Numbered from the stretch's first letter, positions 22,562 to 45,704 are shown. The stretch: 64,000 nt of DNA from Psammoneis japonica (GCA_008632985.1 QPGO01000178.1:62001-126000), one strand, 5' to 3'. Made by a program: numbers and translations. The notes: a model not told the origin generated them from the letters alone.

Positions 22562-22928
22562 TGCAGTATGCGACTGTTATATACATATTTATGATTATAT
22601 ATTATTTATATGTCAATCGTACCACAGTCGTGGATGCGTACAAAGGACAGAACGATCACACAGAGTTGATCGGATGTCGAGAATTGCAAATACGATCGAT
22701 TGACGATGTTGACATCTTACGTGTCAATAGCAATCGTATCCGGACAATCTGTTGTCACGAATATATTCTCCGAAAGGCCTTTTGTCTGTAGAAGCAGTAC
22801 AGAAGCTTTAGGCCATTGAGAACTCATTCGGAGAAACCAAAAATCACAGAGTAAAATTTAATCTCATAATTTCCACTTTTCGTACACTATTCTACTTTCG
22901 TTTACACTCGTTCTTCGAGCATAGTGCA
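22562..22928 (+). repeat. 3' LTR (367 bp)
   Basis: Direct repeat of 18211-18576, preceded by polypurine tract. Confidence 0.95.
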
Positions 22929-25016
22929 CACTGGACATTTGCAGCAGCATTCCCACCCACTCTCAACCTTTGGAGCAGCTTGGGAAGCAGTGATGTCACT
23001 TTGTGAGCACCACACCAGCACACCCTAATCTCAGAGGTCAAGGCAGGGCCAGCAAAAAAAAAGACAGCTTGACTGGGCATGCTGAAGCAGCAAGAGGCGC
23101 AGGGGGTGACAGGAAAACAAGGCGAGCTGGCGACTTTGTGCGCATTGTCACCAGTGTGCCTTGTGTGTGTGCGCACAAGAGCATGGACAAAATTGACAGC
23201 ATTCTAAGTCAGTCTGAGGGTTGTGGCACCCCAAGTGAAAACGTTGTTGCTGTTTCATGAGCAGTGCACAGCGACCTTGATTTGAGCGCTGTTTTGGTGC
23301 CAGCTGGCACGGCAGCTTCATGATGTGAGTGCACAATCTCCAGCAAAGTTGGGCAAGCAAGCAACCAGCTCTGTGTCAGTGCCAACTCATTTTGCTGGGT
23401 GGGGCTCATGACCCACAAAGACAGAGAGGTCAGTTGCGTGCACCGACACACAGCAGTGCTCCTCACTTTCTCAAGCACTCCCTTGTGTGAAGCTGCATGT
23501 TTCAGAGCATGGTTTTTGCCATTTGCCCAGGCGTTTGGTGGCCATTGCACACAGCATTGCTTTGCCTCCTTTCCAGCTGTTCTGTCACACAACAGACCAC
23601 AAACAAGGGGCAAAAATGACGGCATTGCCTTTTCTCCTTTTTGTGTGCTTCCAGGACTTTTTTGGGTCTTTTGGCCCACCCCATTTTTGCTCTGTGTTTG
23701 CAACCCATGTGTCAAACACAGTGTCAAAAGATTGCTCCTGTCAGCCATGCCCCACCCAACTTTTCACCTCTGATGCTGTTGCTCAATTTCTCCTGAGAAT
23801 TTTGGCATTTTTGGCTTGCTGGTTGCGCTGATGTCGCTGTCTGCAGATTTTCTCAAGTCATGGCACATGGGTCAACCAAAGGTTTGCCACATTCCAAAGA
23901 AAATTTGTTGGAGGACTTGGCAAAAAGGTCAGCAAAAGCTGATCATCATAAATTTCATCATGCCAAGAGATGTGCAGCCAAGCTGCTCTTCTTTTCACAG
24001 TTGCCCCAGTGCAAGCTGCTCGGGAAACCTGTGCCTGGCACATGCTCTGGCTCCAGGTGGAGCTCCAACTCAGTGTGCTGGCTGCAGAAAAAAATTGCCA
24101 GGTGATGAACACATCAAAGATTGCCAACCGAAAACAAGAGAGATGGTTTTGTGAGTGCTCGAACTCCCTGCACTTGAACGAGCACATCATTTCTGTCTAA
24201 AAATGCCCAGCCAAGTGGAAGGTGATGCATGAAAATGCTGATGACAAATGAAAGCTCATGTGATGGCATGCAGCAGCACAAGGTCCTGCCCCCAGATCCA
24301 GTGGTGGAGTGCATCATCCACATCCACCACACTCCTGCACACAACCACCAGCAGGAGGAGATTGGGAGGCACATCAAAGTGTGCCACAGATGACAGATGC
24401 TGTGCAGCTCACTGCAGAGAAAGGTGCAATGCTTGTCATGAGCCCACTCAAACAAAGGAAGAGGTTGGGGTTTCTGTTTTAAAAAATGAGAGACTGCACT
24501 CACTTCAGAGGCTCAAAATGTGAGCTCTGTTGCCACGCTGAGTTCGGCTCAGACTGTGCATGATGGAATGCGTTCAGTGCAGATCGGAGACCAACAAGAG
24601 ATGGTGGTCTGTGCCCCCCCTGCATGAGTGAGGGGTTGCCTTCTGTGATCTGCTCTACATTGGATGGCTGACACAAAAGCAGAGCACGAGCCTGCGAGTG
24701 CCGTGCGAGCTGCAACTGGCTCTTGCTCACGCTCCTTTCTTTCATCAGTTTAAAACCAGAGTGCTTGTCCAAGAGTGCATCAGCCACCAGAGGAAAGCAG
24801 AGTCAAGAGCAACAGAGGGCAATTGACCTGCCGATTGAGAGTACAGCGAAATGCATGCGCAATGTCATCATCCAACTGAAGCATCAAGGAAGTTTCGCCT
24901 CGGCTGGGGGTTTCCGGATCGGCTCCATGTGCTCTGCCACAGTCAATTAATAGCGCTCGCTCCTGCGCGCACAATAAGCTCGAGCAATAGCGCGACTCCA
25001 AAACGCCAACACGACC

Positions 25017-27393
25017 ATGATGTTGACGGCGCCACGGCAACGGGTAAGGACCGCTGTAGATGCTACCAATGCGGAGGATACCAGCAAGAGAAAGTCGCTA
25101 TTGCTTCCAAAGCGAACAAGAGGGAAGCAAAGGAAAGCGCATAAAGTTTGGGAAATTTTCGGCGTCACACTGATGCTAGTTCTGCTGGTGGTGGTGTTTA
25201 CTCCAATAGCGACACATCAGCGGGGTTCAACGACGACAGGATTCGTCAACAACACTGTCCGATTCATCACGTCTCAAAAGCACAATATGACTTCATCGAG
25301 ACCGATACTAACTGCGTTTCTGGAGCCTTTTGATACGCTTCAGCAGAACATTCAGCCGCTACCGATACGAAACACCTCTGCGTCTCGCTTAACAAGGATT
25401 GAATACCCCGAGGTGAAGCAATGCTCGATGTTATCTGAGACCTTTCCTATTGATAACTTTCCCACGGGTGACCCTTTTTTGCCTTGGATTCATGATGTAT
25501 TCCCTACTTCGGATGGAAAATACATTCAGTTTGTGGCGCAGAACAAACGACGGTGCGATACGGGAAAGGATCACGAGAAAACTATGGAGCACTGGGAACC
25601 ACAGATTTCATTGTTTCAACCCGTGCCGATAAAGATTACAACTGATTCCAAAAATGGTGTAAAGACTGGTTTCCGACTGGCGACGTACGAAGAAGCTGAT
25701 GTCAAGGAAACGCGCTTTCTTTGTCGATTTCACTCTGGCAATCTCGAAGAAACAACACTGTCCGAATATCCCTTTAATTACGAATACATTAGTTGGCGTA
25801 AACACAGAGAGGGAACAATGTTTGTAAAGCAGGGGAAAGATGCGGCCAGCTTTTGGTTGTCACAGCTTTACTTTTCCTGTCCCGTGCCACCAGTATTTCA
25901 AGACCTGATACAGACGGGCAGCCATGTTCAGAATGACGTTTCAGAGCTCTTTGTAGATGTTGTGCCAATTCGAACTCCACCGAGAGACAAAAAGTTCCTT
26001 TTTAGCAAAGACCATGTGGGCGCTGAGCCTTTGGCAAGTCAAACTATCAAAGTTTTTGATGCAACGACTGAATGGGGATCGTATCACATTCTTCCGGAAA
26101 TCATTGACAGTGGCAGGTGGGCCAACATTCCGGTATGCCTTCCTCCCATTGCCAAGAAACGAAACCGACTCGTCGCCTGTACCTGGGCGGCAATGTCTTA
26201 TTCGCGACGAGGAGAATCTGTCCAGCTGAAAGACACGGCTGGACGATTCAGAGAATGGATAGAGTTTCACTCCATGGTGGGCTTTGATCAGTTGTTTGTT
26301 TACGACAATACAGTATTGGGGGATTCACCGTCCGAAATTGAGCGGATTGCGAGCGAGTATCCGGATACGGTCACCTACCATCGTTGGCCATGTCAGATTT
26401 GCAACAACAATCGACCGGCCCATGCAAATCCCGGCGAACGATCGAGCCAGTACGCAGCGGAAGCGAGCTGTAGGGAGCGTTATGGGTCAAACACAGATTG
26501 GATGGCCACTATCGACATTGATGAGTATCTGGTGCCGATGAAGGGGGATACTTGGGACGAAATCTTGGATGATATGGATCAAAAAGGCATGAAAATTTTG
26601 AAGCTGCGAAGCGCTCGAGCAAAGCCTCGAGTCAGACTGATGGAGTGAGTTGCTCTAGTGTCGTGTACCTTCGTTTCCATCCTTTTCGTCTTTTTTAACC
26701 GTTGTCCATCTATCGCAGGGAGTTACAGGATCAGTCTAGCTGCGTCGACACGAATGAACGTCGCAAGAAGGAACCCGATAGCTGTCTAGTCCCTCGGAAG
26801 GATCAAACGTTTCTTCGAGTGTACAACTGCGAATACATTAAACCCCCTCGACCCAGCCGCTTCGTCAGAGCCATGGTACGGCCCATTGGCACATTTTTCT
26901 CTTCTTTTCTTGTGTGTTTGCCATTCACACTTGTCGACTGCCGAAATTGTTTTTACAGAAACAAATCTACAGGCCGGACTATGTTTACAGCCACTTTGTT
27001 CATTACTCGACCGTGACGAAAGATATTGCCCGTTTGAGAAAGGATTATGAACCCTACGAGCGATACATTAGGAGCGTGCAGAGCGACGCTTGGCAAGCAA
27101 AGAGTCCCGAAGTCTTTCTGGATGAACTAAACGAAGGGAACTTGGTTCATACGCGATCTGTGCTGCCCAGCGAAACCACAAGACGAACAGATGAATGCTA
27201 CAACAGTTCTAAATTTGGTTGCATGATGGGCTACGAGTGCCCCGATTCTACAGAATTTGTCGATGCGATTCACCAGAAAAATATATTTCATGACGACGAA
27301 GGCAATTATTGCAACTGCTGGATAAACCATCGAATTGAAGATTTCTTTGTCCCCAAACTAGAAGCCGCGCTGGAAAGGGACGAAGAACGATAG
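25017..27393 (+). CDS. Glycosyltransferase family 92 (DUF23)-like type II membrane protein; introns 26645-26718 and 26876-26958
   Basis: N-terminal TM anchor; LVACTW, EWIEFHSMVGFDQLFVYDN, SQYAAEASC, WMATIDIDEYLVP; GT-AG introns restore frame. Confidence 0.8.
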
Positions 27394-28456: not shown

Positions 28457-28684
28457 ACTTATCAAGAGAGCATTTTCATCGCGACCTGCCGGCGTTTGGC
28501 CCTGAGAATGTGAGCTACCACCACTTTTTGCTACTTCATGCTACCATTGCATAGAAAGAATAAACATAGAAACGACAAATCTGCTAACGATTCACGTGTT
28601 GACCATTTAATACACTCCCACAAAGACGGAATCACTCCGACATGAATCAGCAGTGTGCTCCTGCATCGTCAGGACGTACAGTAG

Positions 28685-29791
28685 TTAGTCCTCGTCTGAG
28701 TCATCAGTTACCTCCCAATCGTCTTCTACATCGTTCACCCACGAATCATAGTCCTCTGGCGCCCATGCACCCGGTGCAACCGTTGCTGTCATTGACAGGT
28801 CGCGTCTTTCTTCTACCTCGTCCGGTTCTATTTCTTCGTCAAGTTGCTCATGCTGGAGTGTCTCAAGAATGTCGAGTTGCACACCGGGATGGGGAATAGA
28901 AACTGGGTCATCAGGACCCAACATGGACTCTTGTCGTATTTGGCGTTCTTGTACTTTTCGTTTCAAACAATTGTCCAAGAATTTACGCAGCGCCTTCATG
29001 GCATCGTCGTCAAATTCTTCCCATAACTCAGAAGGTATTCGAAGATCCTGCTTCAAAAAGTCTTCGCACAGTACATCGGATACGGGACTCTGTCCTGCTT
29101 TCAGCGGAATGTTTGCAACAGAATCAAACAGTTTCAACTTGTCGGCAGTGATAAATCCCACAACACAACCACCAAAGATACTGACGATGGCATCCAAAGC
29201 CAAGGTGATCGGTTTGGTCACAAGCCAGCCCTCGCGAAAATAGGTTGTGCCATCCTTTCGTGTTACAATACGATTATGCAACGGGCTCTTTTCAAGCCTT
29301 GTGCTAGTGAGCATTTCGTTTTCTCGACCTTTCAACAACAAACTCCACGGCCAGAAAGGTCCCTTGTGTATGGATCGATTCATCCACCGAGCACCAGCCC
29401 ATCGCAAAAAGCAAAACTGAGTAACCGCTGCAGCAGTACCCCAGAAATAGGCTGGCCTCATGCATTTCTTGAATTCATCAAAGTCCGTGTTGTTTTCTTG
29501 AGACATTTTCGCATTCCATTCTCCGGAATCGAACTTTTTCTGAAGGATATCCGCAAACGACTTTGTAATCAATTCGTCGATTCCCATGTTGTTTAGATCA
29601 GGACGAAAAATTGGAATATGAACTGGAATTGGATCTTTGAGATCATCAGTTTCCTTTGCTACCGGATAACATTGAGAGTTGTCGTCATGTAGGGTGTCGT
29701 TCTCGCTCGTTGCAGAATGTGGACGTGGTGCATACACACGGTTCTCTGCATTCTCAGCTCGACGAGCTTCTCTTGACGATGAGTCGTTCAT
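28685..29791 (-). CDS. Hypothetical two-TM protein with acidic C-terminus
   Basis: Intact ORF of about 370 aa with two hydrophobic segments and IPLKAGQSPVSDVLC motif. Confidence 0.7.
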   Translation of the reverse strand: MNDSSSREARRAENAENRVYAPRPHSATSENDTLHDDNSQCYPVAKETDDLKDPIPVHIPIFRPDLNNMGIDELITKSFADILQKKFDSGEWNAKMSQENNTDFDEFKKCMRPAYFWGTAAAVTQFCFLRWAGARWMNRSIHKGPFWPWSLLLKGRENEMLTSTRLEKSPLHNRIVTRKDGTTYFREGWLVTKPITLALDAIVSIFGGCVVGFITADKLKLFDSVANIPLKAGQSPVSDVLCEDFLKQDLRIPSELWEEFDDDAMKALRKFLDNCLKRKVQERQIRQESMLGPDDPVSIPHPGVQLDILETLQHEQLDEEIEPDEVEERRDLSMTATVAPGAWAPEDYDSWVNDVEDDWEVTDDSDED

Positions 29792-31036
29792 ACCTGAAAT
29801 TTCTCCTATTTTGACCAGTGTGAATAGTTGATAGAACACCTAATACCTACTATGGTGCTGTGTGTAAGAGTTCATTGGATGACTTTGTTTTCCGATGAAC
29901 AGTTCCGCTCTCAGCAGGCTACAATTCTCCCATGGCAATTTGGCAATGCCGCTGAATATTTATCGCGGAAATCTTTCAATTGAATCCGCATGATTTTCCC
30001 GAGCTCGTACCGCGAACCGCTCACAAGGTGGCTCTGCACATCAAGACGCGAGATTCAGCGCTGCGGAAGAATCTCTAGGGCCTAGAGTAGAGAACGGTGA
30101 CAGCTCTAGCTGCTGTAGAGAGCAATTGGTAGAGTAGACTTGGAGTGAAGAGTGCAATCATTAGTTGCTGATTGATTGGCTCCCAAGAGAGGGAAGTTGC
30201 TTGCTCGCCACACAAGAAGCTTTGTTCTTGCCAGTGTGCTCCTGCACTGGGTGCTGTGTCCATTGTGCTTGTTTTGTGTGGCGCAGCTCCAACAACTTTT
30301 GACCCAATGAGATGTTTTGGGCCTTCTCATCTGTGCTTGTCAACAACATTGTGGACAAACACCAATTGAAGTGTGGAAAGCAATGTTCTTGGCCACCATT
30401 CTTGCCACAGGTCAAAACTGCCAAAAAACCCACAGGTTGGAGAGCTCCTCCTCTCTGGTCACCAAGAAAAAAGAAAATGTGCCATTTTCAGGCCACACCA
30501 CACAGCTGGCAAAAATGCCCAACTCAAGTTGCACCATGTGCTGACACTCATTGTCTGTGACAAACATGGCAACAGGGGTGCAAACAACATCTGGGACACC
30601 AATGATCCAGGTGTCGCACCAGCCGTCAAGATTTCTTGAAATAAAACCCGACATTTTCTCCCTTCAATCCAAGATCGTGCTGATTTGACAAGTCAGCTTT
30701 TCTGAAACATTCAACAACAAACATCCATGTTCCTCAATTCAACTGTTTGCCCCCCCATCCGACAAGCCTCATGGGCACATTTGGCTCCATTTTAATTTCT
30801 GGATTGTGTGTTGATCAACTTTCTGGATCAAATCAAAATCGCCGCCTGTGTCTGTCAATCTAGATTCTAATTGTTTTCTCAATTTTCTCTCCCTGCCCAT
30901 TCCATCCTTCCTTCCCGTCCATCCGCACATTGCATCTCCATGTTTCTGCCCTCACTGTGTCCCCAAGTGATTGTTGCTGCACCCGCTGTTTCCTTTCGAT
31001 TCTCTTCTCAACTCCTTCGTCCATGTACATCGGCCA

Positions 31037-33929
31037 TGTCATCTGATGGTCTTGTTTGTCCATGGTGCAAACGAACCGGTTTCTTTTCCGAACGTGGCCT
31101 CAGCAGGCACATTGCAACCAACTGCCTCCGTTCCGCCGTTTCCACCAAGTCTTTTGGTTGTCCTCGTTGCGGACAACGTGGATTTGACTCTGAAAACAAC
31201 GTGCAGTGTCACCTGTCTCGGCACTGCACCGCAGCATCTGGTCTCCATCCCCCATTGACACAGTTGCGCCGTGCAACCCAATTGTCTTCTTCATCCAGCG
31301 GAACATCTCTTTCCTCTCATCCTCTGGATTCTGCCTCCATCGGCTCCCTTGGATCCAACACCAACAAACCCAAATGTCCCCATTGCCGTGTTCCCTTTTC
31401 CAACATTGCCCTTCATCTACAGAAGCACTTGCCCTGCCGTGAAAAGGAGGAAATGTCCCTTCGCCTGCATGCCGCATCTTCCACTGCCGCCCACACACTT
31501 CCCCCTCCAGATGACGACCATGATGAATCACTGGACGACCATGACAATCCTGCTGGGTTTGGTTTCTCCGACGACGAACCCCCTCCTCCCCTCCCTGAAG
31601 TCCTTTGGAGTCCAGCTCCATCTCCTCCCACACCAATGGACAACTCTTCTCCAGCTTGTCCTCCCTCTGCTGGAAGTGGACTGCACCCACCCTCCGTCAG
31701 ACACTCTGGTCGATTGCGTTCAGCCGCCAACGCTGCTGCCGCCAGTGCAGCCTCCCAAAATGTCCGCCGATTTGTTTTGTTTGCAGATGATGGTGTGTCT
31801 GCCCTTGGAGAGGACAGTCCTGTGGATGTTCCTGAGTTCATTGGAGCCAACCGTCACGATGGCAGTTGTGCCCCCCCTCAATTTCCCGTCCGACAGAAGA
31901 TCCTGTTTCCTCCCTCGATCAACACAACCCTCTTGGCCCACTGCGTGACATCGCACCCGATGAGGATTTCGATGCACCTCCAGTCTGCTCACCCAGCATT
32001 GTGCCCATGGCACGTTTGCCACATTTGTGTCGTCGGTCAGGTGCTGCAATTGACTTTGTCGACAAAGCAATGAGAATTTTGCATGAAGAGCATGCAGAAA
32101 AAAGACTGGATTTGTCAAAGCCACCCATCACTGCCGCCGTGGTGATGAAGCAACTCCTGGGGTTGTTTCCCAATGTTCCTCTCCCCCGCACTGCTGCTGC
32201 TGTGATGCTGGAATGCAACAATCCAACACAGCAACAGAAGGATGGACCCAAATGTCGTTGCTCCCCACCTTTCCCGGTTTGCAGTTTCACCGAGACCTTG
32301 CAGGATCTCTTCGCCGAGCCAGTGTTCCGCAATCTTTCCAAGTTGCAGGTTAATCCAAATGATGTCTGGTCACCTCATGTGCCACCCCCCACCGATGGCA
32401 ATTTGGAACCCAGCGCTAGCCCGGCTGACGGTTTTGAGATGTCGTTCCCGGATTGTCCTGGTGACTGGCAATTGTCCACTCAAAGTCAAGACATGGGTGA
32501 CGGCGAGTGGCAACAACGTTGCACCAATGCCAAGGAAACGGCATCAGATTTTCACATTCACCTTGTTAATTGCTCGGACAAGACCGGAGTCAATGCGGTC
32601 AATCCTCACGGGATGGAGCCTGCAATGTGCTCACTTGCCATGATTCAAGAGGATGCACGCCGTGACTGCCGTTGTTGGCGTCCACTTGGATTCACACCCA
32701 ATTTGGACAGGAAAGACAAGAAAGACAAGCTTGGGCACCTTGTTGTTGCCAACTGTCACCGCATTCTCAAGGAGGTCCTCCGTGGTCTGCTTCATTGCCA
32801 GGTGAATCCACCCATTGTTCGTGCAACAACAGGCACTCAATGCCGCCATGTCAGAGCTGTGATGCATTGCAACTCCCTGTTGGGGGACATCCTCAATCAA
32901 GAACGCATTTGTGGAAGAGTCGTGGGCAGAAGCAAGACCGAGAGGTTGTCTCACAACTGCCATGTGCCCTCCCACCGTTCTGATGACCCCCTTCATGTCT
33001 GCCAATTTTTTTAACCAAGCTTTCATGGAGTTGCTCACTGCAGCTGCATTGGGTCTGGATCCAGAGGATGACAACAGCCGTTGGCACCAGCATGTTAAAA
33101 GCGTTTCCCAGAAACATCGCACAATGACATCAAAAAAAAGGCTGAGACTGAGCTGGCTTCATCCCTCATTCGCCGAATGACTGCATGCCACAAAATTTTG
33201 AGAAAAGTGTTTGGACAGCACGCAGTGGACAATGCTTGCTTTCCACCCAACATGGGCGACAACCCACGTGGTGCATTTGGCATGACCGTTGCTGACATGA
33301 TGCATGTGTTGGAGGCGGGCATTGTCCCTCAAATGATGGAGGCAATCATCGGAGAGATGTCTGCCAAACAGAAAGAGGAGTGCAACCGTGTTGCATCTGA
33401 GTCATTCTGCACATCCCATTGTTGTCCAGGTCAGAGATGTGACTGCCCGCGAATTCGAGTTAACGGGGGACTTTCCACACTCAGTCAACTTGTGTGTGAC
33501 GAGAAGATGGGAAAGCTTCTCGCACTTGCAATCATTGGTCACACACACGCTGGTAGAAAACTGCTGGAAAAAAGGTGTGATCCATCCTTTGACAGCAAAA
33601 AGAAAAAGACAGCTGATGGCTTTAAAGGAAAGAAGCAACAAGATGAACAATTGACCGAATCCTCAGAAAGTGAACCCAACAATGAGGACACTGAGCCCGT
33701 TGAACCATCCAATGAACAAACCAGCACAACCAACACAAGCCAGGTTGATGAGAATGCGGCTGTTGCACTTCCTAAAGAGACATGGTCTGATGTCACCTGC
33801 GACCCATCCAATCTTCATCACCGAAACTGTGTGATGCAACAGATGCATCGTCATGGACTTTCTGAATTTTGGGAACCATTTTCCAAGCAACTGGACAACG
33901 ATCACTTTCTGACACAACCATTGGATTGA
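31037..33929 (+). pseudogene. Plavaka-like transposase with N-terminal C2HC/C2H2 zinc fingers, frameshifted and truncated
   Basis: CPWC..H..C, CPRC..H..C, CPHC..H..H; HLVNCSDKTG, GMEPAMCSL, WRPLGFTPNL, NCHRILKEVL, GDILNQERICG, VDNACF...GAFGMTVADMMHVLEAGI, PRIRVNGGLSTLSQLVCDEKMG; no Tyr in ORFs 30871..32073, 31866..33014, 33177..33929. Confidence 0.75.
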
Positions 33930-34048
33930 TCTGTGTGGTGTCACATGAAGTCACCATGAGTCCTGCGGTGGCGGCCTTGTTGCGTGCACAAAGAAATGAA
34001 CATGGGGAATTGAACTGATTCCAGTGTGCAGGTGGCGATTCAAGTTCA

Positions 34049-35071
34049 GTGGTGACTCCCACAGAGGGATGTCTTGTGTTGGATCGTGCACCGGTGGTGG
34101 GCGAGAAATTGACAGCATCGATGTTGACCAAGGTCATCAATGAGAGTGTTTGGCCATGTCGCAAGTTCACAATCTTCAATCATGAACTCGCCGTGGGAGG
34201 AGATTGCATGAAATTGGTTCTGCAGGAGTTGAGGAGCATGGCATCTTTGCCGGAGAAGTTCTGGGGAGAACACAAAGAGGTGCTCAGGACCAAACTCAAC
34301 CGAAAGAGAAACAATGTGCAGGACAACATTGGGAGGAGAATGACAGGTGAGCAGATGTGTGCATGCCGGTGATTGTGTTGGAGGCGATTGTCCAACGGGA
34401 TGAGTGTCTCTTCCTTTGCCATTGTCTGTGCAGTTGCTGCTTTAGAGGGATCGCTGGTGGCTTGCAAAGACTTGACAAAGGGAAGAAATGACAAGGACAC
34501 ACACGCATGGTTCTTGGAAACTGTGGTGCCAACGGTGGTGGGACAAGCGCAGTTTGGCAGAAGCACAGCCGACATGCTTCAGGAATGGCTTTCGGTTTCG
34601 TTGGAGGCATTTGCTCTGCTGGTGTGCTTGAACTGCTGCAACAAGGTGAAGGACACGGCAGAGAAATTGGAAAAGGAAGAAAATGTTGCAAGGAGAAGAA
34701 AGCCAACTGTGAAAGATGCTGCTCCTGCAAAGTGCACAGCACAGGCGGTGGGGGAATCGGCAAAAGAGGAACCAAGGATGGAGCAAGGAGGGGATCAAGA
34801 AGTGCAATGATCCACATCAGTGGGTGGTGAAAGACAGAGAGAACAACCAGGGATTCAGTGCATGGTTCAAGGAGAGAAGGCGAGAGAAGACAAACTTGTC
34901 TCAGGAGGAAAACAAGAAACGCAAAAGAGAGGAAAAAAGAAAGGAGAGAGAGGAAGGATGGGCGGCGCCAATGGGAGAGGACCTGCCATTGCAGGCGGTG
35001 GCTGCAGGCAATGGAGCGGCAGCAAACACCACAATGGCCACCAACCAAACTGGTGTGCAAACTTAATTTGA
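34049..35071 (+). pseudogene. Accessory ORF of the transposon, degenerate
   Basis: VINESVWPCRKF, FWGEHKEVLRTKLNRKRNN, WFLETVVPTVVG, SVSLEAFALLVCLNC, AKCT, GWSKEGIKKCN...VVKDRE, a motif series I recognise from accessory ORFs beside Plavaka-type transposases. Confidence 0.55.
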
Positions 35072-35701
35072 AACAAACAATGAAATCCAGATGAGCGAAA
35101 ATTAAAAAAAACATTCTGTGACACAGTTTAGATGCAACAACATGTGGCAAGACAAGTTGGCAGAAAAGGAGGGTGGATTGCAAGCAGCAACATTTGTGTC
35201 AAAAGAACGAGAAACCCCAAATGTCAATTGGGGTGTGGGTCTGCATCATGTGAAAGGAATGATCACACTTGAAAGTGAGAAGCGATTCAGGTTTTAGAAG
35301 CTCACAAACTTGCGCAGTTCTCATGTCACATCCAAGGAGAGAATTGGCTTGTAAGTTGACAACAATCTGGCATCAAAGTCAAGAAATGCCCAGATTGTGG
35401 CAGACGGTCAGACCCAGATCATTGGCGTCCCAGATGAACTGCCCCCAAGGCCGCAACATTGCTGCTCACAAACCACAGGCTCAAGTTCAAGAAATGGGCT
35501 GGTGTGTTGCCTCAACGGAAAAATCTTTAACATCCACAACTTAGGATGATTTTACACATGCCAATTTGCAACCTTTTTCGCAAACATTTGGTCTGTCATC
35601 TGTCCATCAGAATGTGGATTTTCATGACCCTTCAGGCCTTTTTCACCACGACACAGCACGGCACAATGGCGCCGTCACGCCGTCGCGATTTTGAGCACAA
35701 T

Positions 35702-35795
35702 GGAAGGTGGGGCATCGGTCGCCGATGATTGCATCAGTCCCTTTCGATGCTCTAAAGGCTTGAATGTGTTGTCGGCGACCGATGCCCCACCTTCC
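35702..35795. repeat. Perfect 24-bp inverted repeat with 46-bp spacer
   Basis: GGAAGGTGGGGCATCGGTCGCCGA (35702-35725) and its reverse complement (35772-35795). Confidence 0.95.
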
Positions 35796-37639
35796 TTCAT
35801 TGTGAAAATGCTGTCTCTTTTTCGCCATGGCCGCACCACGCAAGCATTGAGCGATCTTGCGCAGGCTTGTGAAACATTGCATTTTACATTCAATGTGCAA
35901 TTCTTTAGAACCATGCAATGCACACAAAAATGATCTTGCACAAGAAAAACAACTGTGAACATTTTGTGGTGACAATGAAAATGCATGTAAAATGCAATGC
36001 ACAAATGTGCATTTCCTAAATGTGTGTCCCGCACGCTCCGACGCGTGGCGAACTTCTTCAAAAATCACCTTCAATGTTCAGCAACAGAGGTGGAAACGGC
36101 GATTGTTTTTACAAATCCATTTGTTGCACATTAACACACATGTTGTCACCAACAGAAAACAACTGAAAACATTTTTTCAAGGCTTAAAATGTGTGTTAAA
36201 CATTTGCATTTAAATCCATTGTGTTGATTGATGCAACATTTTACAAGCCTGATCTTGCGAGCGATGACAAGGTGCATGCATCTCTGCATGATTCAGTGCT
36301 CGTCATTTGAGTTTCCAATTTTCTCACACCAACATCATCAACCGTCATCGTCATTCGTGCAGCCATGGCATCCAGCAAGAAAAAGAGTGGCAACACAGGA
36401 AAGAAAAAAAGTTGTTGTCCCATTGAAAAGAGAGTTGACAATGCTCTCATTCTTTTTGACAGCACACGTCTTGGCAAGCTTTGATGGGAAATGGCCAAAC
36501 GCAGGAGACATTCACCGTGTGCTCCAGGTTGGCGGCATTCCAGGCAGAATGGCCCAAGTGATGTGCCGGATTCAATCCAGAAGGGATCTGGATCCAAGGG
36601 CTTGGTTTCATTTCGCAGAATGTCTGATGACAATGAAAGGTGCAGCCGTTCAGTGAAATTTGAATCTGACCCCGATGCTCCCGAATCTCAAGCCCACATT
36701 CAAATTGAATCATTCAGGATTGACTTGTCGGCGCACTGTGTGGTTCACATGATTCCCTTGTTGCATCTGTTGATGCTCACATTGCACAATCCACCATGAA
36801 GTCATGCAACAGAATGGAATGATCTGTTTTGTGGTGACAGCGATTGTGGCGGCATTGATTTTTTCAACTGCCATTGCAGTTGGTGACATTGCATCTAGAG
36901 TTGCAATTTGCAATGTCATCACATTCTTTGAAAGCATCCTCTTCTTCAGACAACTCAGCTGCCGGCATCCACACATGCAGTCGTCATGGTAAAGAAACAG
37001 CTCTCGCTTTTTCTTCAGTGTTGGAGGGAGAAAAAAATTCTCAGATTGCACGTAATTTCAGCACCGAAACACACGCAGAACAGACAGCAAAAAGACGCGC
37101 AGGCCAACCCATGTTCGCAAAATGGGATTCACGTGGCGGCCCTTCACACCAGCCCATTTCTTGAACTTGAGCCTGTGCACAAACAGCTCCACTGCACCAC
37201 TCTCCTGCCCCAGCCCAAGTTGGCTGGCCAGAAGCCGTGGCAGGGGTCCCCAGGAGTCACAAAGCCTTTCTCTCTTTGACGGGTTCCAGTCCTAGGTGGG
37301 ACTCCGTGTGACATTGGGCCCGTAGAATTCTACGTGCGAGCTCCGCAGTACTAGAATTTAATTAATGGATATATTTATCTTCAACATCAAATGAACTGCC
37401 AAGTTTGTGGTACAATTATGCCTCTTGCCACTCGACGTTTCTGCAAATGCGCCTGCCCTACGCGATTCTTAAGACATTATAGAATCGCGCTGTAACAAAA
37501 AATGTCAAAAGTTGTTGGACGGATCGCTCAATAAATAAGTGTACCGTAAAATGACACAAAATATCGAAAAAATCACGTAGAAATCTACGTGCGCGACATA
37601 CGACGTGATTCAAAAAACTATCATGTCACAGTTCAGTAG

Positions 37640-38232
37640 TACGAGGTCCCACCTAGACCTGGAACGCGTCCTTTCTCCACAGACCAAGTTTGCCATGTTT
37701 GAAGGAGGAGAGCACACAGAACTTGGCTCTGGCCCCATCCACCGGCAACAAAAAGGATGACAACAGCCCTTCTGCTGTGCAGCTGTGGTGGCTCCCTTTG
37801 GCTCCTTCAAATGATTTGGTGATCAAAATGAACCTCTCTGCATTGACTCCAAAAGGTGAACATCAAATGGGGGTTGGGCATGTTGACAGTGGCTGTCAAC
37901 CTGTGCCTTCACCTGATGACTCAAGTTGCAATGTCGACATGCTGGTGTGTCCAGCAGGTCGTGATGAGTGGAGTGAAGAGATCAACTCAATTGCATTGTG
38001 CAGCTTTTGACTTCAATGGGCATGCTTGCTTGTTTGGGGACAGTGATCAACAGTGCCACTGACAACTGACAAGAAAAAGAGCTGTTTTCTTGCCGCACAT
38101 GCTTGGGGTCCCATTCCCTTTGCCAACACCATGATGCTGAGCTGAAATTTAAAACCAACGGTGTGCCTGGTCACCGAGTGCAGGACGGAACAAAAATGTG
38201 CAAGCCAGAGGGGCAGATCTAACAGCCACGTA
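37640..38232. mobile_element. Short TpA-depleted non-autonomous element
   Basis: Ends TA|CGAGG...CCACG|TA; about 2 TpA between 37680 and 38230; left end resembles the reverse complement of 37278-37308. Confidence 0.55.
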
Positions 38233-38239
38233 GTGTGAT

Positions 38240-39010
38240 GCCACTGATTTTACTCTTTGGGTTCTAAGGTCGGATTCGAGCTATCTCGGCTGCGCTGTAA
38301 CGCATGCTGGCTGGGATGGATCGAACAATGACACACCATCTGTAGCAGCAATCCATCATCCAAGGCGATGTGAGAAACGGATCAGCTTCGAGAATGATCA
38401 AGTCTACACTTTGGGAACAGCAGGGAAGGCAATGATCTCAATGGGGGCTTCATTCAAGTTGACGACTGGGACATTGGAACTGCTGAAGGAGGTGAGAAAT
38501 TAGGTTGTGTTATTTCGTGTCTTAATTGCGTCCGGAAAGAGGTGATTATCATTTACGGTGTTGCTGTCAGTAGGCTCTTCGGGTTCACCACTCTTTAACC
38601 AAAATCATCATATTGTCGGGAACATTTGTCGTGGATTGGCTGCGTGTGGTACCGATCGCCCTGACGGGTACGGAAAGCTACATTTTGCATGGAACCGTCG
38701 TGGGACAAGTGCAACAAGGCTTCGTGACCGACTTGATCCCGAAAACACCGGCGTCGTGACACTGGATATGTTTGACCTAAGTGTGCCAACGAAGCCACCA
38801 ACAGAGTCAACAAAAAGCTCCGACAAGATCGCCTACAAAATCTCCAACACAATTTGAAATCGCCGGCAATTTCGCATGCCCCTTCAGTAATTCCAGCAAA
38901 GTTCTCTACGGATGTACCTTCAGCAGTTCCGTCACAGTCACCTACTGATGCTCCTTCAGCAATTCCGACACAGACGCCGACCGAAACTCCGCCGCCTATA
39001 TCCCCATCTT
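38240..39010 (+). pseudogene. Lysyl endopeptidase (Achromobacter protease I-like, S1) serine protease relic with P/S/T-rich tail; intron 38492-38572
   Basis: AGWD, AAIHHP..EKRISFE, DWDIGTAEG|GSSGSPLFNQNHHIVG, GLAAC, DGYGKL..AW; upstream part missing and heavily frameshifted. Confidence 0.7.
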
Positions 39011-39407
39011 AATCTCAGAGTGAATTACCAACGATGGAACCTAGAGTATTGAACCAACTAATACGCACACGCCGTCTCCAACAGATTCGCTCATAAAAGC
39101 CCTTGCGATGACGCCCACACCAGCTCCTGCAGAACACGTTTTGGCTTTTTTAATGGTGGCTATACTGTTGAAAAGGTAGACCGCATTGCAGACACATCTT
39201 TAGACACGCAAGTTTCAAGTCTGTTGAAGCAGCTCTCCTACGACACCTCCCATACCTGCTTCGATGATTTTCCGCTTTTTGGTGGTTGCTATTCTGTCGA
39301 AAAGGGCATCGTAACAAATGCCTTACCGTTAGATCTCAGCAGTTGCAACACGTATCAGAGGTCGAAAATTTGACAGCTGAGGAGCACGCACAATGAGTAG
39401 ACTTTCA

Positions 39408-40967
39408 CTAAACTAAACTAGGCCACCATGACTCTGGAAAGTCGTAGAACAAACAGTTGTTGCGGACCTCACGGAGAAACTTGTCTGTGTCTGCAAGGGT
39501 TCCATCTTCCATGGCGTGTATGACTCTCAAGGCCTGTATTTCCAACGGCACTTTGGGCTTTGTTCGTCTTCCAACGCCTTCCTGCCACAAGGACATTTTG
39601 ACTCGATGGATGTAGGCTGTCGATTGACCTCCTAACAACCAACTCCAGCCATCCACCTTTTGCAAAAGTTCAAATTCAAACGGCCCATGAGGCATTTCAT
39701 CATCATCTGGAACAGGATCACAGATGCCTTTTAGAGGGAGCATAAATTCAGTCGTAATGACTATTGTCCCTGGTTGACATTGACGGCCAAGAGCTTGGGC
39801 AAGGCTGGCCATTATGGACTCGGACATGCAACTCGAAAAGCAAAATACACAGTTTGCATCACCAATGTACTCGTAGGGATCTTCAAATGATCCACACGAG
39901 AATTCAATCGGGGCCAAAGGAAGTGGAGTTGTAGATTTCGCACACGGAAGAAAATACAATGGGTGACCTGGTTCTGAAGTCGTTTCGTTGTTCTGTTTGC
40001 GGTCGACCTCTTCTCCTTCAATGTCCTGAGCTTGGCTAACACTCTTTTCTTCAATATCCTCGCTATGCATATCATCAACGGCGAATTTCTCTCCATCTCG
40101 GTCGTCATCTACACCAAGATCTTTTCGTAGTTGCCCAAACCATTGCATGTCATCTGCCGCCGCCGTGCCTTCCAGTCCTACCGGTACTTTGGTCAAGTGT
40201 TCCACAGTGTCTCCCTCCTTGTGGGATTCGCAACACTTCTCGAGTGTTTCGACAGCAACGTTGTGGATGTTTTCCAAAATCTCCACGCCTCGACAAACGT
40301 TCCATTGAGGATGTAGAGCAGCTGCTGCCAAGACAAGCCTTCCGGTCCCACTCCCAACGTCACAAAATACTTTGCCCTCCCACGTTGTTGACTCTTCTGA
40401 GTCCATCCTCCCTTTGTTGTAATGGTCCAAGGCCATTTCCAAGAGTTGTGCAAAAAAGTAAAAATCAAACTCCCCGTACGTGTATTGCTTGGGTGGTTCT
40501 TGACCGCTATTGATAAAGGGCCAATACCCATCGGTGCGACTGGCTGCATTGCGTTGCTCCAGAGCTTGTGGTGGATAGAGAGTCTGTAATCCCTCCAAAA
40601 CATCCTTGTAAGATACACCGGACGAGGAAAACCGATCCGAGATGGCTAGTTCAGGATTCTCTTCCGGAATGAGTTCGTCTTTTTCAGAAAATGAGCCCGA
40701 ATGGATTGGAATAGCACGCAGTGACACGAGCTGCTTCTGCATGCATTCATATGGTCTTACGAGCAGCAATGGTTCTAATATTCTTGTTCTTCTTTCCGCA
40801 CAAGATAATACTTCTCTAACAGCATGGTCCCTGCCGACAAGCGATGCACCTTGAAAGAAGAAACGGCGAAATCTTCTTTGTACTTCTCTGGCTGGAGCCG
40901 AAAAGAACGAATCACTTTGCCACACAGAAACTATAATAAGGACAATCAGAAGTTCAACATCTTTCAT
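39408..40967 (-). CDS. DOT1-like class I SAM methyltransferase with signal peptide + F motif
   Basis: YTYGEFD, FCDVGSGTGRLVLAAA, CRGVEIL, GTIVIT, SW...STAYIHR; N-terminus MKDVELLIVLIIVSVWQSDS-FFS. Confidence 0.75.
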   Translation of the reverse strand: MKDVELLIVLIIVSVWQSDSFFSAPAREVQRRFRRFFFQGASLVGRDHAVREVLSCAERRTRILEPLLLVRPYECMQKQLVSLRAIPIHSGSFSEKDELIPEENPELAISDRFSSSGVSYKDVLEGLQTLYPPQALEQRNAASRTDGYWPFINSGQEPPKQYTYGEFDFYFFAQLLEMALDHYNKGRMDSEESTTWEGKVFCDVGSGTGRLVLAAAALHPQWNVCRGVEILENIHNVAVETLEKCCESHKEGDTVEHLTKVPVGLEGTAAADDMQWFGQLRKDLGVDDDRDGEKFAVDDMHSEDIEEKSVSQAQDIEGEEVDRKQNNETTSEPGHPLYFLPCAKSTTPLPLAPIEFSCGSFEDPYEYIGDANCVFCFSSCMSESIMASLAQALGRQCQPGTIVITTEFMLPLKGICDPVPDDDEMPHGPFEFELLQKVDGWSWLLGGQSTAYIHRVKMSLWQEGVGRRTKPKVPLEIQALRVIHAMEDGTLADTDKFLREVRNNCLFYDFPESWWPSLV

Positions 40968-41835: not shown

Positions 41836-43553
41836 GAAAAGGACGAGTTTTTTTTAACAGTTGTCAGGCCCTGCTGATTATTCCTGCGGGATAACGGCGG
41901 ACTGCAAGTTGTTGTTGATATCATCGTTGCGTGGTTGTTGCTTGCGGTGAAATGGAACAGGTCTCTACACCAGTAGGGAAAAATTGTCGATGCGTTGAAA
42001 CAAGTGTGTTCATTCTAGGGAGACGCACTAGAATACCAACAGATATGACACATGCTGTGAGGATACTGCTTGTACTCGTACTTGTCACAAACCTCTAGAG
42101 TTGTAGCGCTCGACCGATTTCTCGAAAAAGGGATGGCCCGAGTCCCGGGTCAAAGGCTTGGCATTTGAAAGCATCTTCTCCTTCAAAAAGCAATTTGCTT
42201 TTGCGCCTCAAGAGCCATTAGTACACTACTATTCTTGCACAGCAGAGCTCAACTAGAAGAATTGTGAAAAGAAACTTCATGTTGAGGCCTTCAATTCGTC
42301 GGTGTCCGCCGGCGTCATGGTTCACGAGAAAATTTTTGGGCCAATAGCGTGAGCGTCGCAGTCGTGTGCCGAAGCGAGTCGAGTCCCGAGTGCTCATGTT
42401 TTCTGTTTGTTTGTTGTTGCATCTCTTCAACGCCTCACCAACAACCACATGTACAATGCGAACTCGCAGACAATGAGCAAGATATGACTTTAAATGTGCA
42501 GGCTCAACTTCAGATGAAGAACAACCTGCATGTGGCCAGAGACTGAATGGCTGCCCGCCAACCAGCGGCATTGTGCTGGGATCCATCTGTGCCGGTTTCG
42601 CAATGCTGAGTATGATCAGAAACATCTTTGACGAAATAGAAGAAAATTAAACTCATCATGCATCATTCACTCGCATTAGAAGTTTCGAGGAGGCTACGAG
42701 TAGGTAACCTTACCCATGGGGAAATGAGGCTGTTCCATACTACTTCAACTTGAAACCCGCTGACGATGACTCGTGACTCGCAAGTCAGTCGTGTGTGTCA
42801 ATCACGAGTGCTCATTTTTTCTGTCCGCGGTCCGCGTCCCGCGTCCTCACTCCTCACACAAAATCAAAATGGCGGCGTTGATGTTGCTGGTTGCGGGCCA
42901 TCGCTGCGTTGGGTGCCCCTAGTTCCTGGATCGATGCTGTACATCCACCCACACCGAGCTAAACTGCTGCTGATGCTGTCATCAGGTTGCAAGCATCTGC
43001 TGAAGGAGCGTCGCTCTTTGGAGGATGCATGCTTGAGCAGCAGAAATCGACATGACAAACTCATTGGATTTCTCCTACTGTAGCGGATGGTAATGGGGTG
43101 TGTGTGCTTTCAAGAAACTACAACGATCGTCCGGTCTGGGGGGGCTGGACTCATTCCTCCGATGGTCTGGCTGCCGATGCCCCAAGAGAACAATCTCGCT
43201 AGCAAATGCCGCGCTGCCCATTTCTGAGATGATTATTGGGCGGGGGATGCACGCCGTCCTAGCGAGACCAGTTCGTGAAAGTTGTAATTGATCCATTCTC
43301 TCGAGAGAAAAGACCCAGATTACGGTCTTAGCTGCGCCATTCTTTGTTCTTTCCTTTTCAAGGTGTCGGCCGTCGGCAGACGAATGTACAAATGACGACT
43401 CCTCCGAGTGAGCATGTTCGCTTGAAGTTCCAGGATATGCACAGATTTCAGGAGTTCAGGTGAACGGAGCCGGTGTCGTCGGACGACCCACACAATACAC
43501 ATAATAAGTCTCGATTTGTTTTTGAGAGCTTGACAAAAGAGACGGAAATCGCC

Positions 43554-45704
43554 ATGAAGCTATTGCTCCGACCTCATCAGTTGGAGTGCTTCGAGCATGC
43601 CAAGAAGCAGAACACCATTGTATGTTTGCCCACTGGCGAAGGAAAAACCCTTATTGCGGTTCGACTGATTGAGCATTATTTGAAGCAATGCCCTGACTTG
43701 AAGGTGGCATTCCTTGTTCCTACTAGGCCACTTGTCGAGCAGCAATCAAGATACTGCAGAAAGCACTGTGAGCTAGCTCAAGGAACTCCTCCTGTCGTTC
43801 AGACTATGATTGGCGACGACCAAGCTTCGTGGGGGCAGAGAGAATGGAACACATCGTTTGATCGCTCGCATATCTTTCTTGGTACTCCGGCTGTCTTTCA
43901 GCAAGCCGTTGTGACGGACAAATACATTAGTGTGGATCAGTTCTCTTTGATTGTCTTTGACGAGGTTCACAATGCCACTGGTAATTCACCAATGGCGGGA
44001 ATCATGCGAGACGCCGTTGCTCCGTATCTATCAGCTGAATCAGAGCTACCGCGGATTCTAGGTCTTACTGCCTCTTTTATTCATGGCAGGCTCGCGAATA
44101 ACAAGATACAAAAACGACAAGCGTTGGAGGCGCTCATGATGTCAACTATTATTTGTCCAACCATACCTCAAAGGCTTGATAGTTCCAATTATTCCCGGGT
44201 CTTGTATGCTCAAGACCAATTCCACCAGGAACACGAGGAGCTAGTAAAACGTGTCACCACCGAATCCCTTGAAGGCACTGGCTTTGTCAAGGATGTGCAA
44301 AAGGTTGTTAGAAAGTGCAGTCACGTCTTCATTGAACTTGGCTCGAATTCTTTGTTTTACTATATCGAGAAAGTGATTATTCATCAGATCCAGGAAAAGG
44401 CTACGAATCTTGAACTGCAGACTAAAGACGAAAGAGTTGTGGATTTTGCTAAAAGATTGAAATGGTCTATTCCCGGTATTCGTGACATGCTTGACCGATT
44501 GAAGCAAAGACTATCCCTATCCCTTCCTCCAGGTGGCGGACAAACTTCGAAACTTAAGAAGCTTCTTGAGCTGCTAAGCCAAAATTTTGCAGGCGACGCA
44601 GAGTATCGCGGCATTATCTTTTGCGAACAGGTAGCTTTGGTCTCGTGTCTATGCAAGGAAATCAATGACGCGCTGTCAAGTGTCCGCTGCGGTGCCGTTT
44701 CTGGGGTACAATCTCAACGCGAAGGGGATCGAGAAGATCAGATTCGAGCCTTCAAGAACGGTGATGTTCAGGTTCTCGTCGCCACTGCCGCCCTCGAAGA
44801 AGGTATTGACGTCTCGGAGTGTAAGTTTGTTGTGCGGTACAGCAACATTGCTACGACTAAGGGTCACATTCAAGGAGCAGGTAGGGCGAGGCATGCCAAT
44901 GCAGAGATCTATTACTTTGAAAACTGCCCCGAGACCGAGCTGCACAAAGAACGTGAGATGGTATCTCTGGCCCGAAATTCCTCGCTTGGGCTCAGTGCCG
45001 AGGATTTGAAAAAGGCGAGCGTCGCCGCGTCCGTACCTGATCTGCACCCGTACCCGTTCGATTCAACGACGTCAGGAAGCCAAGTCAACGTCTTTAACTG
45101 CAAGCACATATTTGTGCAGTATTGCTCTCATGTCCTTGGACAGTCCATAAGTCCCAAGGAGCATTTGTACCAATACAATAACGAGCTCGATGTTTTGCTC
45201 TCAATCCAATACCCAACACCACATGGCTGGAAGCTCCTCGAGTGGAAAGAATACAACCGATTCTGGTCTAACGTGGACATGACCAAGATTTTTCCGGTCG
45301 ACCGTAGCAGAAACATGCGCACCACGGATCGTAGGGAAATGTGCTTTGTCTATCTTGTCGTTCTGCAGTTGCGAGAGAATGAGTGGCTCGATCATCACAA
45401 CAAAGCCGTGGCGGCGGAAGAAACGAGGCTCAATTGTCCCTTGGAGCAGAGCGATGGGATTTCCGGCATTTCGCTAAAAGACACGGTAGTGCAAAGTAGT
45501 AGTAGTCAGACCACGAATGGGAGACACACCAGCGAGAGTAGCCAAGCATGCACCAACTACGAGAATGCCATGGATGACAACACGCACTTCTTCAATAACG
45601 CTCGTGGCAACGACATGGAAAACGACTTTTTCGCAGACAATGAGCAAGACATGATTTTACAAGCACAGGCTCAACTTCAGATGAATAATCTACAATATTC
45701 GTGA
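43554..45704 (+). CDS. Dicer-type DExD/H helicase + DUF283 (Dicer dimerisation) domain, lacking PAZ and RNase III
   Basis: LRPHQLE, NTIVCLPTGEGKTLIA, LIVFDEVH, RILGLTAS, RGIIF, VLVATAALEEGIDV, QGAGRAR; then VNVFNCKHIFVQYCSHV...VVLQLRENEWLDHH resembling DUF283; stop at 45704. Confidence 0.85.
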   Translation: MKLLLRPHQLECFEHAKKQNTIVCLPTGEGKTLIAVRLIEHYLKQCPDLKVAFLVPTRPLVEQQSRYCRKHCELAQGTPPVVQTMIGDDQASWGQREWNTSFDRSHIFLGTPAVFQQAVVTDKYISVDQFSLIVFDEVHNATGNSPMAGIMRDAVAPYLSAESELPRILGLTASFIHGRLANNKIQKRQALEALMMSTIICPTIPQRLDSSNYSRVLYAQDQFHQEHEELVKRVTTESLEGTGFVKDVQKVVRKCSHVFIELGSNSLFYYIEKVIIHQIQEKATNLELQTKDERVVDFAKRLKWSIPGIRDMLDRLKQRLSLSLPPGGGQTSKLKKLLELLSQNFAGDAEYRGIIFCEQVALVSCLCKEINDALSSVRCGAVSGVQSQREGDREDQIRAFKNGDVQVLVATAALEEGIDVSECKFVVRYSNIATTKGHIQGAGRARHANAEIYYFENCPETELHKEREMVSLARNSSLGLSAEDLKKASVAASVPDLHPYPFDSTTSGSQVNVFNCKHIFVQYCSHVLGQSISPKEHLYQYNNELDVLLSIQYPTPHGWKLLEWKEYNRFWSNVDMTKIFPVDRSRNMRTTDRREMCFVYLVVLQLRENEWLDHHNKAVAAEETRLNCPLEQSDGISGISLKDTVVQSSSSQTTNGRHTSESSQACTNYENAMDDNTHFFNNARGNDMENDFFADNEQDMILQAQAQLQMNNLQYS

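Follow-up and report, generated by a model that had tools for sequence, protein, structure and literature searches.

What removed almost every TpA dinucleotide from a block of transposon DNA that lies among ordinary genes of the diatom Psammoneis japonica? The block belongs to a 64,000-nt stretch of the genome (GCA_008632985.1, QPGO01000178.1:62001-126000; one strand, 5′ to 3′), which we call the window and from whose first letter all positions are counted. An initial annotation of positions 30130-37310 ascribed the loss to a mutator that converts the A of TpA to G on both strands, specifically in repeats, a kind of reverse repeat-induced point mutation (RIP). We found that the block is depleted in TpA with a defined polarity and sequence context, symmetrically on the two strands and within sharp confines, and that the cause is very probably a localised mutational process, acting after insertion, that turns TpA into TpG or CpA. 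The annotation knew of no published description; such hypermutation was, however, reported in 2026 for the rhizarian alga Bigelowiella natans, in the main text of a preprint (Mettrop et al., bioRxiv 10.64898/2026.01.13.699255). Reverse RIP is real, already described in B. natans and, within the literature searched, new for diatoms; a full-text literature search found no report of TpA hypermutation in diatoms, and diatom papers checked for it mention neither TpA nor hypermutation.

TpA is erased in a nest of dead mobile elements

Positions 30130-37310 contain 42 TpA, where base composition predicts 465.2 (observed/expected ratio, o/e, 0.09). TG and CA were in excess (700 versus 417.6 expected, 1.68, and 744 versus 480.7 expected, 1.55), and CpG was reduced (226 versus 431.5 expected, 0.52). 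The near disappearance of TpA and the surplus of TG and CA had both been annotated correctly, and a hand count of about six TpA in 33001-34020 was matched exactly (6 versus 69.2 expected). The remark that CpG is still fairly common did not hold, as CpG is halved relative to the flanks: in five genes across the window, including the two nearest the block, CpG o/e was 0.85-1.06. TpA o/e in the same genes was 0.44-0.58, ordinary as had been claimed. On the plus strand of 30126-37325 the trinucleotides TAT, TAC and ATA occur 0, 6 and 1 times, respectively. Indeed, four open reading frames (ORFs; 30871-32073, 31836-33014, 33099-33929 and 34373-34810) hold not a single Tyr in a total of 1,217 translated positions, in line with the annotated run of over 1000 transposase codons lacking Tyr.

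The same composition was seen when all erased blocks of the window, described below, were pooled (14,769 nt): o/e was 0.09 for TpA, 0.52 for CpG, 1.57 for CA and 1.63 for TG, against 0.61, 1.01, 1.15 and 1.15, respectively, in the background (49,011 nt of the window). The remaining 12 dinucleotides of the pooled blocks lay between 0.85 and 1.29, so that, CpG aside, the loss is specific to TpA.

Erasure in the annotated interval is real, but the block proved wider and composite. It runs from 30126 to 38250 and is split by an unmutated 393-bp insert (37278-37670) resembling a miniature inverted-repeat transposable element (MITE); no tandem repeats were found in 29800-38400. We read 30.1-38.3 kb, part of a diatom-type nuclear genome, as dead mobile elements that form a nest: a Plavaka-like transposon, a 1.7-kb non-autonomous element and flanking relics. 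The Plavaka-like (KDZ-type) DNA transposon relic occupies 30588-35436 on the plus strand between imperfect 25-nt inverted repeats (30588-30612 and 35412-35436, 88% complementary) and retains 21 TpA (o/e 0.07; CpG 0.52, TG 1.68, CA 1.47). Its transposase core (31836-33929, plus strand) is interrupted by three in-frame stops (TAA at 33012, TGA at 33069 and TAA at 33096). Upstream, the Tyr-free ORF 30871-32073 (plus strand) has a weak C2H2 zinc-finger match (zf-C2H2_4, E 0.0026, below cut-off); it likely encodes, in a different frame, the N-terminal part of the transposase, and the closest homologue, P0122, begins with a similar CxxC...H...C segment.

The 1.7-kb element (35474-37177) has perfect 33-nt terminal inverted repeats, a 7-bp target duplication (CACAAAC) and no Pfam match in six frames, and is erased as well (17 TpA, o/e 0.13, CpG 0.70). 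Erasure extends to the left of the transposon (30126-30587; 3 TpA, o/e 0.09, CpG 0.08, TG 2.0, CA 1.73) and resumes to the right of the MITE-like insert (37671-38250; 3 TpA, o/e 0.08, CpG 0.23, TG 1.94, CA 1.62). The insert itself, with 30-nt inverted ends (83%), carries 29 TpA (o/e 0.93; CpG 1.42). As unerased DNA inside erased DNA, it is a later, young insertion into a stretch that had already been erased, and it is unmutated since. In the main block, TpA loss is thus confined to relics of mobile elements, and the genes alongside are unaffected, as had been annotated.

We noted that 36 ORFs of at least 100 aa, on both strands and in all frames, overlap 29000-38500 (9.5 kb). Since erasure also removes TAA and TAG stops, erased DNA fills with long spurious ORFs, which are likely to be mis-annotated as orphan genes.

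Conserved tyrosines of the transposase were lost by mutation

Could the elements have been TpA-poor already on arrival or amplification, owing to a TpA-poor donor genome or to selection on the element? For the transposase, we translated 32325-33926 through its three stops, each written as X, and used the product (P0121) as a phmmer query. At E<=1e-3 it had 638 protein matches, the strongest with an E of 1.2e-91 over residues 1-439. The Pfam family Plavaka (PF18759) was matched at 21.7 and 20.2 bits, below its gathering cut-off of 26.3, and on these matches we class the window copy as a distant, decayed relative of Plavaka/KDZ transposases. An alignment of 20 sequences contained 10 invariant columns, including D188, C212, C226, H299 and H327. 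A separate database homologue search with the transposase returned P0122 as the sole hit.

Tyr makes up a median of 2.8% (5th percentile 1.9%) of 150 homologues among the 638 matches, and 0% of the window copy; Cys (5.2%) and His (5.1%) of the window copy compare with roughly 2% and 3% in the homologues. In the phmmer alignment of 50 homologues, all three columns with Tyr in at least 65% of sequences read Cys, encoded by TGC or TGT, in the window copy. The 20-sequence alignment gave the same picture, the homologue consensus YVDKTG, RNYH and YPR being replaced by NCSDKTG, ANCH and CPR. The annotation had read the NCSDKTG and ANCH sites as TAY to TGY changes (Y, pyrimidine; R, purine), and these sites are among those we recovered. 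Two weaker Tyr columns read Gln, and a MAFFT alignment had Cys at four of the five Tyr-majority columns covered by the window copy. Over 426 homologue-Tyr cells, the window copy reads Cys in 30%, His in 9.4% and Tyr in 0%; when the homologues are compared among themselves at the same cells, the values are 1.9%, 3.7% and 29%, respectively. As the three strong columns supply most of these cells, the independent sites are few.

Related metagenomic loci (23-40% identity), found from a 6-sequence alignment, had TpA o/e of 0.43-0.75 in the matched region in 16 of 16 cases. Relatives with ordinary TpA and Tyr indicate that the depletion is not intrinsic to the transposase superfamily. An intrinsic or imported composition is, overall, very unlikely: besides the 16 normal relatives, the conserved Tyr reads Cys in an ORF that is broken, the flanks 30126-30587 and 37671-38250 are erased too, the signature is carried by six blocks unrelated at the DNA level, and copies of the family differ as CA versus TG at one dinucleotide and as TA versus TG (the last two points are detailed below). 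Its support comes from two almost Tyr-free proteins, P0208 (0.09%) and P0212 (0.08%), which point to TpA-free members elsewhere.

P0208 (1 Tyr in 1,127 aa) and P0212 (1 Tyr in 1,290 aa) are both Plavaka-family proteins, pass the PF18759 threshold (31.0 and 31.9 bits, respectively) and have Cys or His at conserved Tyr columns. P0208 is encoded on a 4,684-nt JGI contig, and in the separate homologue search it matched itself and P0272 only. The two sequences hint that a footprint of TpA erasure may exist in other public data.

TAY is hit and TTAA is spared

We asked which TpA survive. In erased blocks 56 of 91 surviving TpA were in YTAR (that is, TTAA, CTAA/TTAG or CTAG), versus 348 of 2,128 TpA outside (odds ratio 8.2, p 6e-21). 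RTAY was found 3 times in the blocks and 703 times outside; about 212 were expected in the blocks by length, so that 99% are gone. In contrast, TTAA was undepleted (25 versus about 27 expected). YTAR accounted for 28 of 43, 15 of 18 (53501-55750) and 5 of 8 survivors (22929-24925) in the three survivor-richest blocks; the rule was weaker in 48251-49825 (5 of 11) and 37626-38250 (3 of 6), and in 2176-3300 none of the 5 survivors was YTAR and 3 were ATAA.

The coding DNA of relatives agrees with this rule. The 16 homologous loci (19,942 nt) have 816 TpA, of which 249 are RTAY, 443 mixed and 124 YTAR, while the homologous stretch of the window (1,602 nt) has 9, divided into 0, 1 and 8, respectively. 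About 10 YTAR would be expected from the relatives, so YTAR is intact and practically all other contexts are gone. When we modelled attack on each strand separately, as a function of the base that follows the A, the fitted cumulative intensities were 2.87 for TAT, 1.57 for TAC, 0.66 for TAG and 0.04 for TAA. Survival of YTAR and loss of RTAY identify the target as TAY, i.e. RTA on the opposite strand, and with TAY as the mutable unit Tyr is turned mostly to Cys and not to His.

Two other accounts of missing TpA were dropped by reasoning only: avoidance of TA or TTAA insertion targets, as TTAA is the one context kept, and selection against UpA in mRNA, as the elements are dead and non-coding flanks are erased as well.

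The products are symmetric between the strands. In the Plavaka-like element TGY and RCA each occur 253 times, and four other blocks are similar, which makes transcription-coupled exposure of one strand unlikely. The annotated conversion of the A of TpA to G therefore stands in one part, the directional change of TpA to TpG/CpA on both strands; in the other part, A and T are indistinguishable from sequence as the attacked base. TpA is self-complementary and its products are symmetric (253 versus 253), so that TAY cannot be separated from RTA. Thymine modified at RTA, for example to 5-hydroxymethyluracil by a TET/JBP-type enzyme, would mispair with G and give T to C. Fungal KDZ/Plavaka transposons travel with TET/JBP genes, and 5-hydroxymethyluracil of dinoflagellates is enriched at TpA. 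However, the window ORFs scanned contain no TET/JBP gene or domain, and the sole experimental precedent, B. natans, is interpreted in the preprint's main text as A deamination, though without testing. We consider attack on T unlikely.

Other erased blocks and their CpG content

A scan of the window for TpA-poor runs gave 2176-3300 (o/e 0.07), 22901-24925 (0.08), 30126-37325 (0.09), 37626-38250 (0.15), 48251-49825 (0.10) and 53501-55750 (0.12). Self-BLAST found no similarity among the six, and the signature is thus not a property of one family. The neighbouring genes, with TpA o/e of 0.44-0.58 versus 0.07-0.15 in the blocks, are normal.

Block 2176-3300 has 5 TpA (o/e 0.07) and CpG at 0.44, and includes a 3-N run (2394-2396). 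The second erased block (22929-24925; 8 TpA, o/e about 0.08, CpG 0.29) starts exactly at the end of a long terminal repeat (LTR) element. Block 48251-49825 (11 TpA, o/e 0.10, CpG 0.85) adjoins an assembly gap of 217 N (47636-47852), on the other side of which 47001-47600 is AT-rich (GC 0.37-0.38). Block 53501-55750 has 18 TpA (o/e 0.12), 15 of them in YTAR. Six-frame Pfam scans found nothing in these four blocks (2176-3300, 22929-24925, 48251-49825 and 53501-55750), nor in 16400-18210, so that, outside the main block, the erased DNA of these four has no recognisable content.

CpG o/e was 0.08-0.85 in the blocks, versus 1.01 outside, and TpA and CpG o/e were correlated over 62 one-kb windows (Spearman rho 0.58, p 6e-7). 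Erased DNA is CpG-poor, whereas unerased mobile DNA is CpG-rich. Diatom transposons are CpG-methylated. We infer that the two footprints reflect how long the DNA has been silenced and methylated at cytosine; alternatively, they may reflect nothing but its age.

Copies of the family in sequencing data

The window was also compared with contigs built independently by Logan from X1, the sole public run that contains the stretch. Summed X1 depths are not copy numbers and served only to distinguish 'many related contigs' from 'one'. Depth was 881-4,344 over 30468-37107, versus 58-63 in genes, and up to 17 contigs share one alternative letter on the Plavaka-like element. It reached 118,842 in the bin of the MITE (37108-37771) and 38,323 in that of the 3′ LTR (22500-23163). 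The second erased block is covered from 23164 only, at 64-80 up to 24491 and at 254 in bin 24492-25155.

Of 978 places at which the contigs vary, 40 were compared. At 32330/1 and 34813/4 the window's CA is TG in other contigs of the family, and at 33390 the window's TG is still TA, within TAT, in fourteen of them. The CA/TG and TA/TG differences among copies indicate that at least part of the erasure took place after the copies diverged.

The same contigs bear on whether the signature is a sequencing or base-calling artefact, for example modified bases of silenced DNA being read as G or C. Such an error might be shared by the assembly and X1, a single public run that is possibly the assembly's own data. 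However, X1 contigs match the window with no difference over 29696-30614 (919 nt), 35909-36318 (410 nt) and 37644-39442 (1,797 nt), erased stretches included, and the longest X1 contig reaches 315 kb at an even depth near 60, a poor fit to noisy reads. In addition, error would hardly produce a rule as strict as that for TAY, borders as sharp as those of the elements, or an untouched MITE within erased DNA. An artefact is extremely unlikely.

The exactly matching contigs have a depth of 31-35, and the neighbouring genes are covered at 56-63 by contigs with a small number of differences. It may be that the organism is diploid and that a single haplotype carries the transposon nest with its borders. 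At 28677-28710 one contig (depth 112, about twice its neighbours) differs from the window at five places within 34 nt, four of them TpA in the window and CpA or TpG in the contig. The contig may come from another place in the genome, where this gene end would exist in a further, partly erased copy.

Repeated DNA that escapes erasure

A young LTR retrotransposon served as a control (18211-22928, plus strand; LTRs 18211-18576 and 22562-22928). Its LTRs differ by two substitutions (one CG/CA, one CA/TA) and one indel in 367 nt, and the element is not erased (TpA o/e 0.76, CpG 1.19). It has TG..CA ends flanked by CACT, and its right end forms the left border of block 22929-24925; the left flank (16500-18210) is AT-rich and not erased. 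The interior is AT-rich (GC 0.40) and stop-filled, with a longest ORF of 158 aa and a weak RT_RNaseH match as the sole Pfam domain, so that the element is either a non-autonomous copy or one copied from an already degenerate template.

A 0.8-kb duplication (11584-12364 and 14093-14871, 83% identity) is likewise unerased, with TpA o/e of 0.81 and 0.57 and CpG of about 1.0; its 78 substitutions include 11 between TA and TG/CA and 7 between CG and TG/CA.

These results contradict the annotated restriction to repeats. The very high-copy MITE (TpA o/e 0.93), the young LTR element with its very high-copy LTR (0.76) and the duplication (0.81/0.57) all escape and, conversely, 22929-24925 is erased although most of it has a depth like that of single-copy DNA. 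Erasure is triggered neither by copy number nor by duplication.

The unerased LTR element also bears on ADAR-like RNA editing (A to I on double-stranded transcripts) fixed via an RNA intermediate, which we considered together with repair or gene conversion that is biased and takes place between diverged repeats. The substrate of ADAR is RNA, with a 3′ G favoured, whereas APOBEC converts C to U. The process seen here would resemble both as a deaminase-driven hypermutation of selfish nucleic acids, and shares with ADAR the 5′ U/T neighbour, a classic preference of that enzyme according to the B. natans preprint (bioRxiv 10.64898/2026.01.13.699255); the family, moreover, is multi-copy. It differs in that the change is in the DNA of DNA transposons, with a 3′ order of T > C > G > A, TAG being among the least depleted contexts. 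The main elements, with terminal inverted repeats and a target duplication, move as DNA, and flanks of the nest that are not part of identified elements are erased too, while the LTR retrotransposon, which does pass through RNA, is not. In the pooled blocks AA and TT are up and GC content is almost the same as outside, and this lack of a general AT to GC shift argues against GC-biased conversion. Both variants are highly improbable.

Proposed mechanism

The localised process would act as follows. After insertion, almost every TpA in the elements would be turned into TpG or CpA by a transition process that acts equally on both strands, needs a pyrimidine 3′ of the A (TAY, or RTA on the opposite strand), spares YTAR, TTAA especially, and ends at element borders. 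It would run alongside ordinary decay of CpG by deamination of 5-methylcytosine, and this co-occurrence suggests action on silenced, methylated DNA and not on mere repeats. The A would be converted to a base pairing with G, most simply by enzymatic deamination to hypoxanthine in DNA, read as G. Adenine deamination has about an even chance of being the chemistry.

Several points weigh against this account. The context rule assumes that ancestral NTAN usage was like that of window genes or distant relatives. The polarity test has few independent columns (three strong ones, or four of five in the second alignment), and the copy comparison spans 40 variable places of 978. X1 is possibly the assembly's own data, and its confirmation at the read level is then perhaps not independent. 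The evidence for the methylation link is CpG depletion, and copy number does not predict erasure, which has passed over the MITE as well as the LTR element and the 0.8-kb duplication. Finally, no deaminase or TET/JBP domain was found in the window ORFs scanned.

Comparison with known systems

In mutation-accumulation lines of B. natans, mutation is about 1000-fold faster in two integrated viral regions than in the rest of the genome, 230 of 231 mutations in these hypermutable regions being A to G or T to C, all stated to be on TpA; some lines and some inserts only are affected, and TpA-poor coding sequences are enriched for DDE and reverse transcriptase domains (bioRxiv 10.64898/2026.01.13.699255). 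The preprint's main text puts forward a homologue of ADAT2 as the enzyme, untested there, and mentions no CpG, 3′ context, diatoms or other species (bioRxiv 10.64898/2026.01.13.699255). As far as that text goes, the two cases share the change of TpA to TpG/CpA in foreign or mobile DNA beside normal genes, a TpA-poor, CA/TG-rich composition and a selectivity that leaves some foreign elements out (here the LTR element and the MITE). They differ in host (a diatom, hence a stramenopile, versus a rhizarian alga), in targets (transposon relics versus inserts of nucleocytoplasmic large DNA viruses (NCLDV) and virophages) and in degree, with near saturation here (o/e 0.07-0.13) and 0.45 in their NCLDV region. 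Here the process is known from its fossil signature alone, whereas in B. natans the de novo rate was measured directly. CpG loss and the TAY/RTA rule with TTAA spared were seen here and are given in neither case by the main text there; the sparing of TTAA while TAY is hit is a new motif rule, absent from that text.

Fungal RIP and the process seen here both introduce heritable transitions locally, kill mobile elements by doing so and can be recognised by a dinucleotide footprint. The direction, however, is opposite (TpA 0.09 and CpA/TpG about 1.6 here), and duplication is no trigger here, the 0.8-kb pair and the high-copy MITE and LTR element being untouched. RIP changes C to T mainly at CpA and so creates TpA. 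Deamination of 5-methylcytosine at CpG likewise feeds TpG/CpA and is evident in the blocks (CpG o/e 0.08-0.85), but it accounts for at most about 205 of the about 545 excess TG and CA in 30130-37310. The annotation had set both processes aside, and we concur: RIP runs the other way and CpG decay cannot remove TpA.

Bacterial TadA acts on U-A-C in the anticodon loop of tRNA. This is a TAY context, and a homologue of the related ADAT2 is the candidate named in the preprint's main text. The natural substrate of TadA and ADAT2-ADAT3 is, however, tRNA, and activity on DNA is cited in that text for few homologues only. Tentatively, and as one possibility, the erased blocks could be traces of an old dedicated defence shared by diatoms and chlorarachniophytes: a deaminase, possibly derived from TadA/ADAT, that acts on adenine of DNA in the motif T-A-pyrimidine and is directed to mobile elements or viral sequence in a silenced, methylated state. 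If this were true, TpA erasure would remove Tyr codons and TATA-like signals, an effect that mirrors fungal RIP by opposite chemistry.

Targeted A:T to G:C hypermutation of selfish DNA has been described once before, in the 2026 preprint on one rhizarian alga. A saturated footprint in a diatom suggests that the process is widespread in the SAR (stramenopile, alveolate and rhizarian) supergroup or arose more than once; either way, RIP and CpG decay would be joined by a third genome defence that is mutagenic and heritable. As a biochemical fingerprint, the TAY/RTA rule with TTAA spared can serve in screens of candidate deaminases or thymine modifiers, and the mutations listed for B. natans can be compared with it. 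A natural enzyme that edits A within a set motif of DNA would, moreover, be of interest for base editing.

Genes elsewhere in the window

A gene at 43464-45704 encodes a Dicer-like or RIG-I-like helicase (DEAD/ResIII and Helicase_C). Its best named matches are from diatoms at 44-50% identity (Attheya, Epithemia, Thalassiosira, Bacillariaceae and Seminavis), followed by dinoflagellates at about 37%; the best match of all has 55% identity, and there is no chlorarachniophyte among the 120 matches listed. Taken by itself, this one gene points to a diatom or close relative with proteins missing from the database, and away from B. natans. The diatom relatives are labelled 'endoribonuclease Dicer' or 'Dicer-like'. 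The gene is a component of a small-RNA pathway that lies 5 kb from the erased nest, a proximity that is probably coincidental.

A single ORF at 5852-7342 fuses the beta (N- and C-terminal) and alpha domains of nitrile hydratase and is a fused enzyme of eukaryotic type. Five PH domains of bacterial type (bPH_1, E 2.4e-116) make up the 772-aa ORF at 9334-11652, which reaches with its 3′ end into the 0.8-kb duplication (11584-12364 and 14093-14871); the second copy, 14093-14871, overlaps an O-methyltransferase ORF (14294-15640).

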